Virus record (IMG/VR): IMGVR_UViG_3300012000_000005
Coordinates: 31,462 to 95,461 of that record
Strand: one strand, 5' to 3'
DNA: 64,000 bases
DNA from: a virus
Made by a program: the position numbers and the translations under genes. Numbering within the stretch: the stretch's first letter is position 1; the number at the start of each line of letters is the position of its first letter. The notes under the pieces are model-generated. The model was given only the letters and a program-made list of their open reading frames with translations. It had not been told where the DNA came from and searched no databases. Positions 33,679 to 57,465 of the stretch are shown here, in pieces.

Positions 33679-35257
33679 TGGCTCCCTTCTTCCTTATCAA
33701 CCAGAGGCCGTTGACAAGATGTGCCTTCGTAAGCGCATGTTGGTTGCCTATGACCTTGGGTTAGGCAAAACAGTTATTACCATAGCTGCAATAGAGCGTC
33801 TGATGGATGAGAACAAAGTAACTGAGCCAGGCCTTATAATTTGCCTGTCTTCCCTAAAATACCAATGGGCTGGACAGATAGAGAAATTTACTAATGGAAC
33901 TTCACGAGCTTTGGTTGTGGATGGAACGCCGAAGAAAAGAGCAGAGCAATATGCTCAAGCCCAAGACTGGCGTAACACAGGCATTGATTACATCATTCTT
34001 AACTACGAGCAGATTGTTAACGACTGGGACTATGTCAAGGAGTTACCAAGAGGATTTGTCGTCCTTGACGAAGCCACAGCAATCAAATCTTTTAAGTCCA
34101 AGCGCTCAAGAGCAGTCAAGAAACTTGTCAACGCCCCGTACCGTTTTGCACTCACAGGTACTCCTATTGAGAATGGCAAGCCAGAAGAGCTGTATAGCAT
34201 TATGCAATTCGTTGACGCCAACGTACTTGGTAGGTTTGATATCTTTGACGCCGCTTTTATCGTAAGAAACTCTTGGGGCGCACCACAGTACTACCGTAAT
34301 TTAAAAACTCTTCACGAAAAGATGAAAGAAGCATCTGTTCGTAAAGCACAGAAAGACGAGGACGTTGCTCCTTATCTTCCAGACACAATTCATAAAGACC
34401 CAATAAAGATATTCTTTGACAGAAAGTCTTCTAAGTTATACAGACGTATAGTTGAAGATTTGTTGTCAGACTTAGATGAAGCTCAAGATTTGTTTGGCAG
34501 CAACTTTAATATTATGGCTCACTACGGTATGGAGTCTAGACGCGGTGGTCCAGAGGACGAGATGCGTGGCAAGATTATGTCTAAGATTGGTGCCCTTAAG
34601 ATGTTGTGCTCTCACCCAGATTTGTTAAAAGCTAGCGCTGCTAAGTTTAGAATGATGGGAGGCGAGGGTTCAGCATACATAGCTGAGCTTGTCGATAACG
34701 GCTCGCTAGATGAGATTAATAGTTCTCCAAAATTAGATTACCTAATTCAATATGTAAAGGACCACCTAGAGCAGGATGACAATAACAAGGTGGTTATCTT
34801 TGCTACCTATGTTGACATGCTTGATAAGATAGTCGCAGCACTCGGCGAAGACATGTGCAGAAAGTACTCAGGTAAACTAGATGCTCGTACTAAAGAACTT
34901 AACAAAACTGACTTCAATACTAATCCCGCTGTACGCGTACTGGTTAGTTCTGACGCTGGGGGTTACGGTGTGGACCTTCCTGCTGCTAATATGCTTATCA
35001 ATTACGACCTCCCTTGGTCTTCAGGCAGCGCAACGCAAAGGAATGGCCGCATACAAAGAGCGTCATCTACCTGGCCAACAATAGTTATTCAAGACATTAT
35101 CGTTTCTGGTTCCATAGAAGAAAGACAACACGAGGCTTTGCAACAAAAGAGTGCAGTAGCAAATGCGGTAATTGATGGAGAGGGGTTTGACGATAACGGT
35201 AACATGCCGTTAAGCGTTGGAAGTTTAAGACAGTTTTTACAAGCAGCAATTGTCTAG
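33668..35257 (+). CDS. SNF2-family (SF2) helicase
   Basis: DLGLGKT, LDEA, LTGTPIEN, SSDAGGYGVDL, QRNGRIQR. Confidence 0.9.
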   Translation: MTFSGSLLPYQPEAVDKMCLRKRMLVAYDLGLGKTVITIAAIERLMDENKVTEPGLIICLSSLKYQWAGQIEKFTNGTSRALVVDGTPKKRAEQYAQAQDWRNTGIDYIILNYEQIVNDWDYVKELPRGFVVLDEATAIKSFKSKRSRAVKKLVNAPYRFALTGTPIENGKPEELYSIMQFVDANVLGRFDIFDAAFIVRNSWGAPQYYRNLKTLHEKMKEASVRKAQKDEDVAPYLPDTIHKDPIKIFFDRKSSKLYRRIVEDLLSDLDEAQDLFGSNFNIMAHYGMESRRGGPEDEMRGKIMSKIGALKMLCSHPDLLKASAAKFRMMGGEGSAYIAELVDNGSLDEINSSPKLDYLIQYVKDHLEQDDNNKVVIFATYVDMLDKIVAALGEDMCRKYSGKLDARTKELNKTDFNTNPAVRVLVSSDAGGYGVDLPAANMLINYDLPWSSGSATQRNGRIQRASSTWPTIVIQDIIVSGSIEERQHEALQQKSAVANAVIDGEGFDDNGNMPLSVGSLRQFLQAAIV

Positions 35258-35323
35258 TAGCTCAGTTGGCAGAGCAGGCGACTGTTAATCGCCAGGTCCC
35301 TGGTTCGAGCCCAGGCTAGACAG
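35251..35323 (+). tRNA. tRNA-Asn(GUU), no encoded CCA
   Basis: Acceptor TGTCTAG/CTAGACA, anticodon arm GGCGA-CTGTTAA-TCGCC, GGTTCGAG T-loop. Confidence 0.92.
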
Positions 35324-35327
35324 CTTC

Positions 35328-35400
35328 GCGGATGTAGCGCAGTTGGTAGCGCGGAACCTTGCCAAGGTTCAGGTCGCGGGTTCGAACCCCGTCATCCGCT
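35328..35400 (+). tRNA. tRNA-Gly(GCC), no encoded CCA
   Basis: Acceptor GCGGATG/CATCCGC, anticodon arm GAACC-TTGCCAA-GGTTC, GGTTCGAA T-loop. Confidence 0.93.
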
Positions 35401-35401
35401 C

Positions 35402-35989
35402 GTGGTTAGACTAAACAGGATATATACCAAGACTGGTGATACAGGCACGGCCGCACTCATGGGCGACGGACGCCATCCCAAAGAAGATATTATCTTTGAT
35501 GCAATTGGCACAGTAGACGAAGCTAACTCTTCTATTGGTGTTGCTATGTGTTATGTAGAAAACGAAGATGTACATAAAGTATTAAAAAATGTACAGAATG
35601 ATTTATTTGATTTAGGCGCTGACCTGGCCTATCCAAAAGCTTCTGTAACTGAAGCACACATTACTTATCTTGAAACCACTATAGATTTTTATAACTCTCA
35701 GTTAAAACCTTTAGAGTCATTTGTTTTACCTTCAGGCACCAAGGCTTCGTCCTACCTACATCTTTCTAGAACAATAGTACGGAGAGCTGAGAGGGATGTA
35801 TGGGATGCCGTAAAACAGCGGGAGACCAACCCCCTCATAGCCAAGTACCTTAATAGGCTTTCAGACCTGCTATTTGTCCTAGCTAGATACATGAATCATG
35901 GGGACGATATACTGTGGGAACCAGCAGTAAAACTATTGGCAGATGGTGTAATTGGCAACACGCCTGGCTCTGAACCAGGAGACGTCTAG
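35402..35989 (+). CDS. pduO: PduO-type ATP:cob(I)alamin adenosyltransferase
   Basis: RIYTKTGD.G, GTVDEANS.IG, QNDLFDLGADLA, FVLP.G, H..RT..RRAER, YLNRLSDLLFVLAR. Confidence 0.93.
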   Translation: MVRLNRIYTKTGDTGTAALMGDGRHPKEDIIFDAIGTVDEANSSIGVAMCYVENEDVHKVLKNVQNDLFDLGADLAYPKASVTEAHITYLETTIDFYNSQLKPLESFVLPSGTKASSYLHLSRTIVRRAERDVWDAVKQRETNPLIAKYLNRLSDLLFVLARYMNHGDDILWEPAVKLLADGVIGNTPGSEPGDV

Positions 35990-36010
35990 GTTCGACCCCT
36001 AGTCTGCCAG
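35937..36010 (+). tRNA. tRNA-Gln(CUG), no encoded CCA
   Basis: Acceptor TGGCAGA/TCTGCCA, anticodon arm CCTGG-CTCTGAA-CCAGG, GGTTCGAC T-loop. Confidence 0.88.
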
Positions 36011-42212: not shown

Positions 42213-42505
42213 AAGGTTGGCGACATCAAGCCAAGTGTCGGGGGATGGACACAGAGCTTTGGTTTCCTCCCAGAGATAAAGCCAAATATAAAAAGATTGC
42301 ATCCGTATCTAAAGCTGTCTGCTTTGGACGTGATGGCTTACCTGAATGCCCAGTGCGTAAGGAATGTTTGCTGTACGCAGAAGCACAAGAAGAGCAACAC
42401 GGTATATGGGGTGGCATGTCGCATCGTGAGCGTAATGCGCTTAAGCGTAAAGCTAAGAAGCACGGCAAAACCCTAGAGGAGTGGATACTTGACGGCGACC
42501 TGTGA
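42188..42505 (+). CDS. whiB: WhiB-family Fe-S transcription factor
   Basis: WRHQAKC..DTELWFP, VC, CPVRKECL, GIWGG..ER. Confidence 0.9.
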   Translation: MFEDIGHLEGWRHQAKCRGMDTELWFPPRDKAKYKKIASVSKAVCFGRDGLPECPVRKECLLYAEAQEEQHGIWGGMSHRERNALKRKAKKHGKTLEEWILDGDL

Positions 42506-52707: not shown

Positions 52708-53166
52708 GTGGCAATATTAGTATTTTTAGACGGCGTACTTAGAAATGATAAAAGCGCCCCCATCCCAAATGGTATGGCGCTGTACAGAAGTCTTAAAGAA
52801 AAGCATCGCGTTCTTGTTCTATGTGAAGACGTAGAAAAGGATGACCATTGGCTACGTCAGCAACGCGTCAATAACATTGACGACCTTGTTGATTATAAAA
52901 AAATTCCAGCACTCGGCGAGCACCCAAAGCTACGTCAGGTAGAGTGGGTAAAGTCCCAAGGTCCCGTAGAGTATGTAATAACTTCGGACCCAGAATTAGT
53001 CACCCAGCTACTTGAAATTGGTATGACAACTTTGGTATTTTTACAGCCGTTGTATATTAGAGAAGAATTTAGGCCAGACAGCCGCAGGGGTGTTAAAGCC
53101 TGGTCAGACATTGTTGAAGAAATTGAACGCCAACAGGATGCCTTTAAGGAGGACCCACGAATATGA
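52708..53166 (+). CDS. HAD-like protein, first Asp of DxD replaced (FLDGVL) (leaderless)
   Basis: ILVFLDGVLR..PIPNG..LY. Confidence 0.6.
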   Translation: MAILVFLDGVLRNDKSAPIPNGMALYRSLKEKHRVLVLCEDVEKDDHWLRQQRVNNIDDLVDYKKIPALGEHPKLRQVEWVKSQGPVEYVITSDPELVTQLLEIGMTTLVFLQPLYIREEFRPDSRRGVKAWSDIVEEIERQQDAFKEDPRI

Positions 53167-53276
53167 GCGAGAAGCCAACTTGCCCTAGAGGGTGCGAGGG
53201 AAATGTATTAGATTACGTAAGCGGAGATGCGTACCTGTGTGCTAAGTGTGGCATCACCTGGAGCAAGCCTAAGTGA
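53163..53276 (+). CDS. Zinc-ribbon peptide, 37 aa
   Basis: MSEKPTCPRGCEGNVLDYVSGDAYLCAKCGITWSKPK; ATGA and GTGA overlaps on both sides. Confidence 0.6.
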   Translation: MSEKPTCPRGCEGNVLDYVSGDAYLCAKCGITWSKPK

Positions 53277-54846: not shown

Positions 54847-56874
54847 ATGGCACTGAGTTTCCGACTAGCAGAAGAATTCCTAAAGGACTACCGCAGTAAG
54901 AAAGTACCTTGGGGTTATAAAGATGCGGCGGGTAACTCGGTGGGTGAGATTACTTTCCTTAGAACATACTCCCGACTAAAAGAGGACGGAACTAAGGAGA
55001 CTTGGGTAGATGTATGCCAGCGAGTAATCGAGGGCATGTACTCCTTACAGAAAGACCACTGCAAAACCAATCGTCTACCTTGGAATGACAGCAGAGCTCA
55101 AGCCTCGGCTAAGGAAGCCTTCGACCGTTTATTTAATTTAAAGTGGACACCCCCAGGACGAGGTCTATGGGTTATGGGAACACCACTGGTCAACGAGCAG
55201 AAGAACTCCGCGGCTTTACAGAACTGCGCCTTTGTGTCTACCTCTAGTATGACTAAGTTAGACCCTGCTAAACCGTTTGCTTTCCTCATGGAAGCATCAA
55301 TGTTGGGCGTGGGAGTCGGATTTGATGACAAGGGTGCAGACAAGGACTTTTTTATTTACGAGCCAAAACTGCCTGAGGTCATAATCCAGATTCCAGATAC
55401 CAGGGAGGGATGGGTGGAGTCAGTAAGTACCCTGATTAACTCCTATTTAAAACCAGAACAGCCTGTTTATGTATTTGATTATTCTTTAATTAGACCAGCG
55501 GGTACCCCCATCAAAACCTTCGGCGGCACAGCTGCGGGCCATGAGCCTCTGGAGAAGCTCCACAATCACGTACGACGCATCTTTAATAGAAAGAGGGCGG
55601 GTTCTAAATTAACAAGGGTAGATATAGCAGATTTGGGTAATCTAATTGGAGTCTGCGTTGTATCTGGCAATGTCCGCCGCAGTGCTGAGCTGTTGATGGG
55701 CCGACTTGATGACCAAGACTTTTTAAATTTAAAGAACGCAAAGGCTTTCCCTGAGCGCAACTCCTACGAAGCTGCAGCTCCTGGCTGGGCCTGGATGTCT
55801 AACAACTCTGTAGAAGTATCTGTGGGTTCTAAATTAGACCACATAGTTGAGGGTATTGCTTTGAACGGTGAGCCTGGTGTTATCTGGATGGATGTTACTC
55901 GTCAGTATGGCCGACTCATAGACCCAATCAATAATAAAGACCATCGAGCTGCTGGGTACAATCCGTGCGCTGAACAATCGCTGGAATCTTTTGAGTGCTG
56001 TACTCTGGTTGAAACTTACCTCAATCGCCATGAATCTAAAGAAGATTACCTACGTACTCTAAAGTTTGCCTATCTCTATGCAAAGACTGTAACATTGCTT
56101 CCTACCCACTGGGAAGAGACTAACGCAATCATGCAACGCAATCGTCGTATTGGAACCTCTATGTCTGGAGTGGCTAACTTCGCTGACCTCGTAGGTATGC
56201 CTGTACTTCGTGAGTGGATGGACGAGGGGTATAAAACAATTCAAGACTACGACCGCACATATTCAGAGTGGCTTGGCATTCGAGAATCAATTAAAACTAC
56301 CACCGTTAAGCCTAGCGGTACCGTTTCTATATTAGCGGGAGAATCTCCTGGGGTTCACTGGACTCCTGGCGGCAAGTACTTCCTACGTGCAATCCGTTTC
56401 TCTAATGAAGACCCAATGCTACCTTTGTTTAAAGCGTCGGGTTATAAAATAGAAAAGGCTTCCGAATCTCCTAAGACAACTAGCGTCGTTTACTTCCCCA
56501 TCAAATCAGAGGCGCTACGGTCAGAAAAAGATGTTTCAATCTATGAAAAGATGTCGCTCGCGGCTACCGCACAGCGATATTGGTCAGACAACAGCGTCAG
56601 CGTTACAGTATCCTTTAATGCAAATACTGAAAAAGACGCCGTAGGAACAGTTCTACACATGTTTGACGGGCAACTCAAAACCGTTTCCTTCTTACCAATG
56701 GGGAACGAGACTTACCCGCAAATGCCCTACACACAGATAACCGAAGCAGAATACGAAAAGTATGCCTTCAAGTTATTGCCTATTGACTTTGTTGACGTTT
56801 ATGCAGGTATGGCCGCGGACGCAATCGGTGAAAAGTATTGCTCAACTGATTATTGCGAAATCCCACAACAATGA
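54847..56874 (+). CDS. nrdJ: Class II (adenosylcobalamin-dependent) ribonucleotide reductase, monomeric RTPR type
   Basis: RTYSR, PPGRGLW, LQNC, GNVRRSA, NPCAE, KPSGT, C-terminal CSTDYC; no small-subunit gene nearby. Confidence 0.93.
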   Translation: MALSFRLAEEFLKDYRSKKVPWGYKDAAGNSVGEITFLRTYSRLKEDGTKETWVDVCQRVIEGMYSLQKDHCKTNRLPWNDSRAQASAKEAFDRLFNLKWTPPGRGLWVMGTPLVNEQKNSAALQNCAFVSTSSMTKLDPAKPFAFLMEASMLGVGVGFDDKGADKDFFIYEPKLPEVIIQIPDTREGWVESVSTLINSYLKPEQPVYVFDYSLIRPAGTPIKTFGGTAAGHEPLEKLHNHVRRIFNRKRAGSKLTRVDIADLGNLIGVCVVSGNVRRSAELLMGRLDDQDFLNLKNAKAFPERNSYEAAAPGWAWMSNNSVEVSVGSKLDHIVEGIALNGEPGVIWMDVTRQYGRLIDPINNKDHRAAGYNPCAEQSLESFECCTLVETYLNRHESKEDYLRTLKFAYLYAKTVTLLPTHWEETNAIMQRNRRIGTSMSGVANFADLVGMPVLREWMDEGYKTIQDYDRTYSEWLGIRESIKTTTVKPSGTVSILAGESPGVHWTPGGKYFLRAIRFSNEDPMLPLFKASGYKIEKASESPKTTSVVYFPIKSEALRSEKDVSIYEKMSLAATAQRYWSDNSVSVTVSFNANTEKDAVGTVLHMFDGQLKTVSFLPMGNETYPQMPYTQITEAEYEKYAFKLLPIDFVDVYAGMAADAIGEKYCSTDYCEIPQQ

Positions 56875-57299
56875 AAATACTTGTAAGTATTGTTCTAATT
56901 GTAGGCGGGCTATTCTATGTTAATCAGCCAGAGAAGTGTATAAACCTACACGTTGATGGCGGCGGAAACCAGGTGAGCTCGAGCTGCATCCCGTCGCCAG
57001 ACAATACAAATGCTTTAGTTCTATTAAGAAATGCCGATTATAAAATAGAAGGCACAGTTAAATATGGAAATGCTGTCGTATGCAGAGTCAACGGAATGCC
57101 AGCTCAAGAGCTCGAATCATGCAAGGACATGCCACCAGCGGAAGCATATTGGGCAGTTTTAATTAAAAAGCACAGGGCTATCCCACTATTTAATGAGTGG
57201 GGTTGGGCTCAAACAGGAATCAACGAAGTTTATCTATCTCAGGGAGACTCTCTAGGATTGGTATTCGTAGTTAATGGAGAAGTAAAATGGCCGTCTTAA
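56871..57299 (+). CDS. Membrane-anchored DUF4430/transcobalamin-C-terminal-like (putative cobalamin-binding) protein
   Basis: ATGA overlap with nrdJ; N-terminal TM/signal; AL.LL..ADYKIEGT.KYG.AVVCRVNG.P, C..MPP..AYWA, W.W...GI....L..GDSLGLVF. Confidence 0.65.
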   Translation: MKILVSIVLIVGGLFYVNQPEKCINLHVDGGGNQVSSSCIPSPDNTNALVLLRNADYKIEGTVKYGNAVVCRVNGMPAQELESCKDMPPAEAYWAVLIKKHRAIPLFNEWGWAQTGINEVYLSQGDSLGLVFVVNGEVKWPS

Positions 57300-57415
57300 C
57301 ACCAGTAAAGAAAACAACTAATTGGCTAATTCCACAACTTATTACAAACCTATTCGCTCTCTACATAGCAAATAAGATAAGCGTCGATATATGGCGCTCG
57401 CTAACAGGTCATTAA
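57287..57415 (+). CDS. Small single-TM peptide ending in ...WRSLTGH, 42 aa
   Basis: My translation: MAVLTPVKKTTNWLIPQLITNLFALYIANKISVDIWRSLTGH; overlaps the previous gene and precedes a terminator. Confidence 0.6.
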   Translation: MAVLTPVKKTTNWLIPQLITNLFALYIANKISVDIWRSLTGH

Positions 57416-57425
57416 AGACTTAAAC

Positions 57426-57465
57426 AGAAAGGCCACCTAGACCCGAAACTAGGTGGCCTTTCTTT
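57426..57465. terminator. Bidirectional terminator between converging blocks
   Basis: AGAAAGGCCACCTAG-loop-CTAGGTGGCCTTTCT-TT. Confidence 0.8.

Follow-up and report, generated by a model that had tools for sequence, protein, structure and literature searches.

We analyzed a 64,000-nucleotide stretch of viral DNA (hereafter the window), which makes up the 3′ two thirds of the 95,461-bp IMG/VR virus record IMGVR_UViG_3300012000_000005 (completeness rating 99%), and we identified two small genes, p142 and p42, directly downstream of a gene encoding a class II, adenosylcobalamin-dependent ribonucleotide reductase (nrdJ). Across related phages these two genes form a cassette with pduO, which encodes a cob(I)alamin adenosyltransferase, and the p142 product is predicted to be a membrane-anchored relative of the beta domain of transcobalamin. 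We consider it reasonably likely that this cassette is a phage accessory module for catching corrinoid from the surroundings at the cell surface and adenosylating it anew for the phage NrdJ. An earlier note on the window, made from the sequence alone, had proposed a B12 capture and activation system of this kind, and our results support that proposal.

The p142 product contains the N-terminal anchor, the four Cys residues and the motifs which that note had described. In the structural model the N-terminal hydrophobic helix spans residues 3-17, and both the Cys residues (C23, C39, C71 and C84) and the quoted motifs are invariant among 31 homologues; in total, we found 145 close homologues, each of approximately 150 aa. 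An AlphaFold2 model built on the homologue alignment was confident (pLDDT 87.5, pTM 0.80), and comparison of this model with solved structures using Foldseek returned transcobalamin, haptocorrin, intrinsic factor and the DUF4430 structure 3u7z as the top PDB matches. Assignment of secondary structure with DSSP placed a helix at residues 48-54, followed by a beta-hairpin formed by strands 59-62 and 66-73. According to Burroughs et al. 2007 (PMC1796856), what sets the transcobalamin clade apart among SLBB domains is a beta-hairpin after the helix that contacts B12, and the most conserved motif of p142, EGTxKYGxAVVCRVNG, sits on this hairpin. The same clade is marked by export or surface anchoring, for which p142 has its N-terminal hydrophobic helix (export itself being predicted), and by transporter or toroid genes as neighbours, which the phage gene lacks, its neighbours being nrdJ, p42 and pduO. 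As modeled, p142 folds like the beta domain with which transcobalamin binds cobalamin; binding of cobalamin by p142 is putative, and is supported by context, i.e., by the riboswitches of its cellular kin and by its linkage to PduO and NrdJ.

Our search of IMG/VR identified at least 143 contigs encoding a p142 relative, of which 80 loci were examined by tblastn with the window proteins, and dereplication at 90% identity reduced these loci to 24 phage lineages. A p42 homologue lies directly after p142 in 75 of the 80 loci. Inspection of the remaining five by eye showed one at a contig edge and four with a divergent p42 (two ending in ...WRxxTGH and two in ...WRxxTCxC), and p42 is present in all 23 lineages that could be assessed. 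The pduO gene follows p42 directly in 60 of the 80 loci and in 19 of the 24 lineages, with one further lineage carrying it just upstream and another about 6 kb off. In these canonical loci the p42 stop codon overlaps the pduO ATG (TAATG or TGATG), and p142 and p42 overlap or abut. A class II ribonucleotide reductase gene is found directly before p142 in 29 of the 80 loci, with nrdJ adjacent in 11 lineages, and among these adjacent reductases is another NrdJ type, at only 28% identity, whose assignment Pfam confirmed. Other lineages have the cassette located among genes for RecA, RuvC and nucleases, i.e., within a DNA-metabolism block, and all six of the searched cassette records that were at least 85% complete and had no adjacent nrdJ encode a class II reductase elsewhere in the genome; the cassette records with no class II reductase match are fragments, 16-62% complete.

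We also surveyed the viral loci carrying the closest NrdJ proteins (80 loci at 78-99% identity, 75 of them with enough flanking sequence to judge). Twenty whole records of NrdJ phages that lack the cassette, five of which are 97-100% complete, contain neither p142 nor PduO, and thus the presence of p142 and PduO co-varies. These results demonstrate that p142, p42 and pduO are acquired and lost jointly, and that the cassette implies NrdJ while NrdJ does not imply the cassette. The earlier note had expected the other genes of the set to track nrdJ; this held in the direction from cassette to class II reductase, and failed in the other, since most phages with a close NrdJ are without the cassette. 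All cassette contigs that we examined come from freshwater sources. No p142 homologue was found by tblastn in 50,697 GenBank phage records, PduO was found in 15, mostly short unannotated fragments, and in DSL-LC01, the deposited phage closest in nrdJ DNA, the reductase gene is followed only by small hypothetical genes.

The second member of the cassette, p42, had been described as an overlapping 42-aa transmembrane peptide ending in His, and our analysis bears this out, with conservation in frame. Its N-terminus is variable and Lys-rich, and its C-terminus carries the motif ...D(I/V)WRSxxGH-stop, in which W, R, G and H are invariant. Among 20 diverse copies, the ratio of nonsynonymous to synonymous polymorphism (pN/pS) is 0.37 in the core, and the last nine codons have a pN of 0.15 and a pS of 0.74; p42 is under purifying selection, with in-frame conservation beyond chance, although no family in Pfam, PHROG or NCBIfam matches it. 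In two divergent lineages (L128:5200-5400 and L130:6430-6600) the ending ...WRSxxGH of the peptide is replaced by ...WRxxTCxC, a swap that would keep a potential metal-ligating residue at this position. The positively charged N-terminus and the C-terminal His or Cys suggest a helix with its N-terminus inside and its C-terminus outside, offering a possible cobalt ligand beside p142. Prediction of a complex between p142 and p42 from two alignments gave a score of 0.00 and was run without controls, and this score counts neither for nor against binding. We considered p42 as a split-off cellular anchor and dropped this idea, as p42 had no tblastn match in any of the 65 cellular loci described below, and the C-terminal transmembrane-RRR anchors of the cellular proteins are unlike it.

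A scan of cellular genomes, taking one genome per species, identified 65 loci in Actinomycetota that encode proteins with 21-42% identity to p142, including loci in Aurantimicrobium, Intrasporangiaceae and Nocardioidaceae; among sampled Actinomycetia, p142-like genes are present in 31 of 401 genomes. Nearly all of these 65 loci share a common operon encoding a toroid protein, the p142-like protein, CbiQ/EcfT, a double ABC ATPase and a multi-transmembrane protein. The toroid protein is a prenyltransferase-like alpha/alpha toroid with a weak match to the NCBIfam SCO2321 family, and the p142-like proteins match part of the SCO2322 family model (NF040672) at 17.7-29.4 bits, under its cut-off of 85 bits. 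These cellular proteins carry either a lipobox (LLVGC in L003) or a signal peptide with a C-terminal transmembrane-RRR anchor. In some of them the p142-like domain is fused to an alpha/alpha toroid, giving a transcobalamin-like two-domain protein, and one such fusion matches PF01122 (Cobalamin_bind).

A cobalamin riboswitch (RF00174) lies just upstream of this operon, on the same strand, in 25 of the 26 genomes searched (coordinates mapped by hand), with Aurantimicrobium as the exception, and the match belonging to the operon is over the gathering score in 15 of those genomes. For nine loci (L005, L006, L008, L012, L013, L016, L031, L032 and L037, from genomes G018, G019, G021, G025, G026, G028, G034, G035 and G037), the match at the operon is the sole RF00174 match in the genome. 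This SCO2321/SCO2322-type operon, with its energy-coupling factor (ECF) components, is a prime candidate for the main corrinoid importer of those nine genomes, and appears uncharacterised in the literature searched. Bacterial proteins of this type were predicted to scavenge B12 or its precursors by Burroughs et al. 2007 (PMC1796856), and our riboswitch evidence agrees with that prediction and adds to it. In a maximum-likelihood tree, the phage p142 proteins form one group (support 88/87) that is sister to a cellular clade of the Aurantimicrobium type, with a support of 100/99 for the joint branch.

Two features of the cellular operons may be recorded here. Three loci from uncultured Actinomycetota or Marmoricola (L020:6647-10282, L025 and L038) contain two tandem p142-like paralogues, and in L020 two cobalamin riboswitch matches occur, which precede the toroid gene and the second paralogue, respectively. 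The operon closes with a gene (L003:12189-12956, L017:13090-14352) for a conserved multi-transmembrane protein, about 255 aa long and without a match in Pfam or NCBIfam, which by position could be the substrate-specific (S) component of an ECF-type system.

Based on these findings, we propose that during infection p142 would be inserted in the host membrane with its beta-grasp domain outside, held by two disulfides and binding free corrinoid, which would then be taken in by the B12 importer that the host already has. Because the Co-C bond is photolabile, hydroxocobalamin would make up most of what is imported in sunlit water, and PduO would convert the imported cofactor, once reduced, to adenosylcobalamin for use by NrdJ. 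The outcome would be more deoxynucleoside triphosphate synthesis in a host unable to make B12. The p42 peptide is probably a membrane partner of p142, with its C-terminal His at the outer face. A more specific arrangement can be drawn from the same parts, and we put it forward as a speculative one, which is rather unlikely to hold in full: p142 and p42 would together be a minimal two-piece corrinoid receptor that stands in for the absent toroid half, with the p42 His (or Cys-x-Cys in the variants) at the outer side of the membrane ligating cobalt axially, and this receptor would dock on the riboswitch-controlled ECF module of the host as a high-affinity front end supplied by the phage. Infection would then re-wire B12 uptake in an auxotroph, e.g., a freshwater acI-type host, with the operon handing the cofactor to PduO and NrdJ.

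Several observations weigh against capture at the cell surface for NrdJ. The phage contains no transporter gene, and uptake would have to go through a B12 importer of the host. The alpha/alpha toroid half supplies most cobalamin contacts in transcobalamin. The phage p142 is without this half, and a beta domain on its own may be a weak binder or depend on a partner. The family models give no support: PF14478 (DUF4430) has no match to p142 at E ≤ 1, none at the same threshold when the phage and four cellular genomes were searched in all six frames, and none in 98 distant relatives at E ≤ 0.001. The proposal that p142 is a DUF4430 beta-grasp protein thus stands for the fold, which the model shares with the solved DUF4430 member 3u7z, and falls for Pfam membership. 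More broadly, no Pfam, PHROG or NCBIfam model matches p142, including the SCO2322 family (NF040672, cut-off 85 bits). A profile search of PDB sequences with the p142 alignment found nothing relevant (a chance CDC14 match, E 0.06), and Foldseek of the model against the BFVD viral structures found nothing below E 0.06. A protein atlas cluster in which 27% of members carry PF28005 (SCO2322; score 0.87) is a lead only. On the cellular side, Aurantimicrobium, a member of the clade of the closest cellular relatives, has the operon and no detectable riboswitch, and no measurement of the ligand of the cellular p142 family is reported in the literature searched. Finally, the cassette is present in just 5 of the 75 assessable loci with the closest NrdJ, and since most of these phages are without it, it is not essential for NrdJ function.

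We weighed three other explanations, each of which is less well supported than surface capture for NrdJ. Improbable, but the best placed of the three, is a role for p142 and p42 as an intracellular or membrane-proximal escort that receives cobalamin from the host importer at the inner membrane face and delivers it to PduO and NrdJ, much as B12 trafficking chaperones do in eukaryotes, with no surface scavenging. The tight translational coupling of p142, p42 and pduO suggests that they work in stoichiometric amounts with an enzyme of the cytoplasm, p142 lacks both a lipobox and a clear signal-peptidase site, and its lone beta domain, without the toroid half, would also fit such a role. However, the four invariant Cys are placed for two possible disulfides, which suit an extracytoplasmic protein, all cellular relatives have signal peptides, a lipobox or C-terminal anchors, and the clade is described as one of secreted or cell-surface proteins (Burroughs et al., PMC1796856).

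We give a slightly lower chance to the explanation that p142 and p42 act on the corrinoid uptake of the host, by blocking or re-targeting an ECF-type transporter or surface binder (as in superinfection exclusion or receptor masking), or that their ligand is a different one, e.g., cobinamide, some other tetrapyrrole or another soluble compound. Exclusion is a frequent role of phage membrane "moron" proteins, and the cellular sister clade of the phage proteins (Aurantimicrobium) lacks the riboswitch. SLBB domains are, in addition, known to bind varied soluble ligands (PMC1796856). Exclusion would nevertheless leave unexplained the fixed operon with PduO, the joint presence and absence of p142 and PduO, and the restriction to NrdJ genomes, and other lineages hold the cassette among replication and recombination genes, not among genes for lysogeny or exclusion. 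Hitch-hiking of p142 and p42 as unrelated small membrane genes that happen to neighbour nrdJ and pduO, for which one could cite the variability of this region, the absence of the cassette from most related NrdJ phages and the move of pduO in the window lineage, is close to refuted by the lineage linkage (with gene order and overlapping junctions kept in 24 lineages, at identities as low as 47% and next to NrdJ of two unrelated types), by the joint absence of p142 and PduO and by the independent link of the cellular p142 family to cobalamin riboswitches. The specificity of the fold match also speaks against it.

The phage cassette differs from the systems already described. The beta domains of transcobalamin, haptocorrin and intrinsic factor (e.g., PDB 2bb6, 4kki, 2pmv and 5np4) have 13-20% identity to p142, with no match at the level of hidden Markov models, and compared with transcobalamin p142 lacks the alpha/alpha toroid domain, is membrane-anchored and has two extra Cys pairs. 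The cobalt-coordinating His of transcobalamin lies in the toroid domain, and is hence missing from p142. BtuM is a solitary ECF-type S component that ligates cobalt via a Cys, and CbiN is a small accessory peptide of CbiMNQO. Both resemble p42, as a lead only, in being small membrane components with a metal-ligating residue, which in their case act in the uptake of corrinoid or cobalt, p42 ending in an invariant His or, in two divergent lineages, in CxC; compared by description, p42 has one helix and 42 residues and is too small for a transporter. The cellular p142 homologues (25-37% identity) are of the same type as the bacterial transcobalamin-like SLBB proteins (those in CbiQ/CbiO operons, DUF4430, and SCO2322 with its SCO2321 toroid neighbour), whereas the phage p142 has an N-terminal and not a C-terminal anchor, has neither transporter nor toroid genes beside it, is linked with PduO and a new peptide, and goes unrecognised by PF14478 and NF040672. 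Phage auxiliary metabolic genes for cofactor supply are a further near kind. For virioplankton carrying a ribonucleoside-triphosphate reductase (RTPR), it has been reported that the class II RTPR of lytic phages depends on host B12, and speculated, with no gene named, that B12 uptake could be increased by these viruses (Wu et al. 2023, PMC10547690); here, a candidate uptake and activation cassette is identified. Our literature search (DUF4430, SCO2322 and phage adenosyltransferase) found no description of a phage-borne p142 or of a p142-p42-pduO cassette, in line with the view that this set had not been described as a phage system.

The features of the window that belong to this system are listed in Table 1.

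Table 1. Location of the cassette genes, nrdJ and the downstream hairpin in the window
Feature	Position	Strand	Description
pduO	35402..35989	+	PduO-type ATP:cob(I)alamin adenosyltransferase
nrdJ	54847..56874	+	Monomeric class II (adenosylcobalamin-dependent) ribonucleoside-triphosphate reductase, 675 aa
p142	56871..57299	+	142 aa, N-terminal anchor, predicted transcobalamin-beta-domain-like (SLBB) beta-grasp
p42	57287..57415	+	42 aa, single-helix membrane peptide; overlaps p142 stop; ends ...WRSLTGH
Hairpin	57426..57463	+	15 bp, GC-rich, between convergent transcription units

The nrdJ product belongs to the TIGR02505 RTPR family (369.5 bits, with a curated equivalog cut-off of 340), matches phrog_367, and contains the Pfam domains RNR_Alpha and RNR-II_ins_dom (PF21995, E 4e-13), the latter showing that the class II insertion domain is present. 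No B12-binding domain (PF02310) was found elsewhere in the 95-kb phage genome, and NrdJ is, as judged from sequence, the sole recognisable B12 client in the phage. The TGA of nrdJ shares an ATGA (56871-56874) with the start of p142, which is the class II reductase and overlap that the earlier note had reported, and nrdJ, p142 and p42 are translationally coupled. The three-gene unit proposed there is borne out by these overlapping junctions and by the hairpin after p42, which folds with a dG of -29.1 kcal/mol (z -5.5), a value that none of 200 shuffled sequences matched. The genes past the hairpin are on the minus strand, and the hairpin is likely a bidirectional terminator that closes the nrdJ-p142-p42 unit, as had been claimed; it was not listed by a simple terminator scan, because its T tail is imperfect.

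Contigs from RNA libraries (four studies) span p142 and p42 and bridge both gene junctions, which is consistent with transcription as one unit, although this evidence is weak, as it may reflect carry-over of DNA, and it is evidence of presence only, with uncovered parts carrying no meaning. In one RNA-library run (X7), a contig ends and the next one starts inside the loop of the hairpin (window 57441-57449), where transcripts could end, or where the assembly could simply break at an inverted repeat.

The full-length PduO reported in the earlier note is indeed encoded elsewhere in the window, as its product matches PF01923 over the whole model (1-171 of 171; E 1e-56, 191.8 bits) and TIGR00636 at 179.3 bits (cut-off 108). 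Here pduO is located about 19 kb from nrdJ, inside a tRNA cluster (tRNAs at 35251-35323, 35328-35400 and 35937-36010), with its GTG start 2 nt past the end of one tRNA and its open reading frame entering the next tRNA by 53 nt. Conservation of PduO among relatives is limited to residues 1-175, and the last 20 or so codons, which run into the tRNA gene, are unconserved and are probably a by-product of the move into the tRNA cluster. Where canonical relatives have the pduO ATG (TAATG), the window has TAAAG after p42. The window lineage is a derived variant, in which pduO is displaced and the hairpin stands after p42 in place of the pduO start.

Directly upstream of nrdJ, a gene at 53273-54739 matches phrog_887 (queuine tRNA-ribosyltransferase/DpdA-like; E 1e-51), which suggests 7-deazaguanine modification of the phage DNA, and it is preceded by a 37-aa CxxC...CxxC open reading frame at 53163-53276. 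A WhiB-family gene (window 42218-42442; PF02467, E 4e-19) marks the virus, on sequence grounds, as an actinophage. The phage recurs across freshwater, lake and river metagenomes from 11 studies. Because of the WhiB gene, a G+C content of 44.5% and this recurrence in freshwater, we infer that its host is likely a freshwater actinobacterium. In the acI Actinobacteria, there is no B12 synthesis, and ECF modules lie behind cobalamin riboswitches (PMC5301498).

Many aquatic phages use B12-dependent ribonucleotide reductases, and most of their hosts cannot make B12. How such phages obtain the cofactor is a question that has been raised explicitly for marine RTPR phages (PMC10547690). The cassette offers a concrete and testable candidate, comprising a predicted B12 binder of extracellular type, a new conserved peptide and an adenosyltransferase, which are inherited together. 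If the proposed role is correct, we would know of no earlier system for vitamin capture that is encoded by a virus, and it would give a function to an uncharacterised family of Actinomycetota, i.e., the SCO2322/SCO2321-type operons behind cobalamin riboswitches. It would also have a bearing on B12 cycling in lakes, and the small soluble domain of p142 could serve as a minimal B12-binding scaffold.

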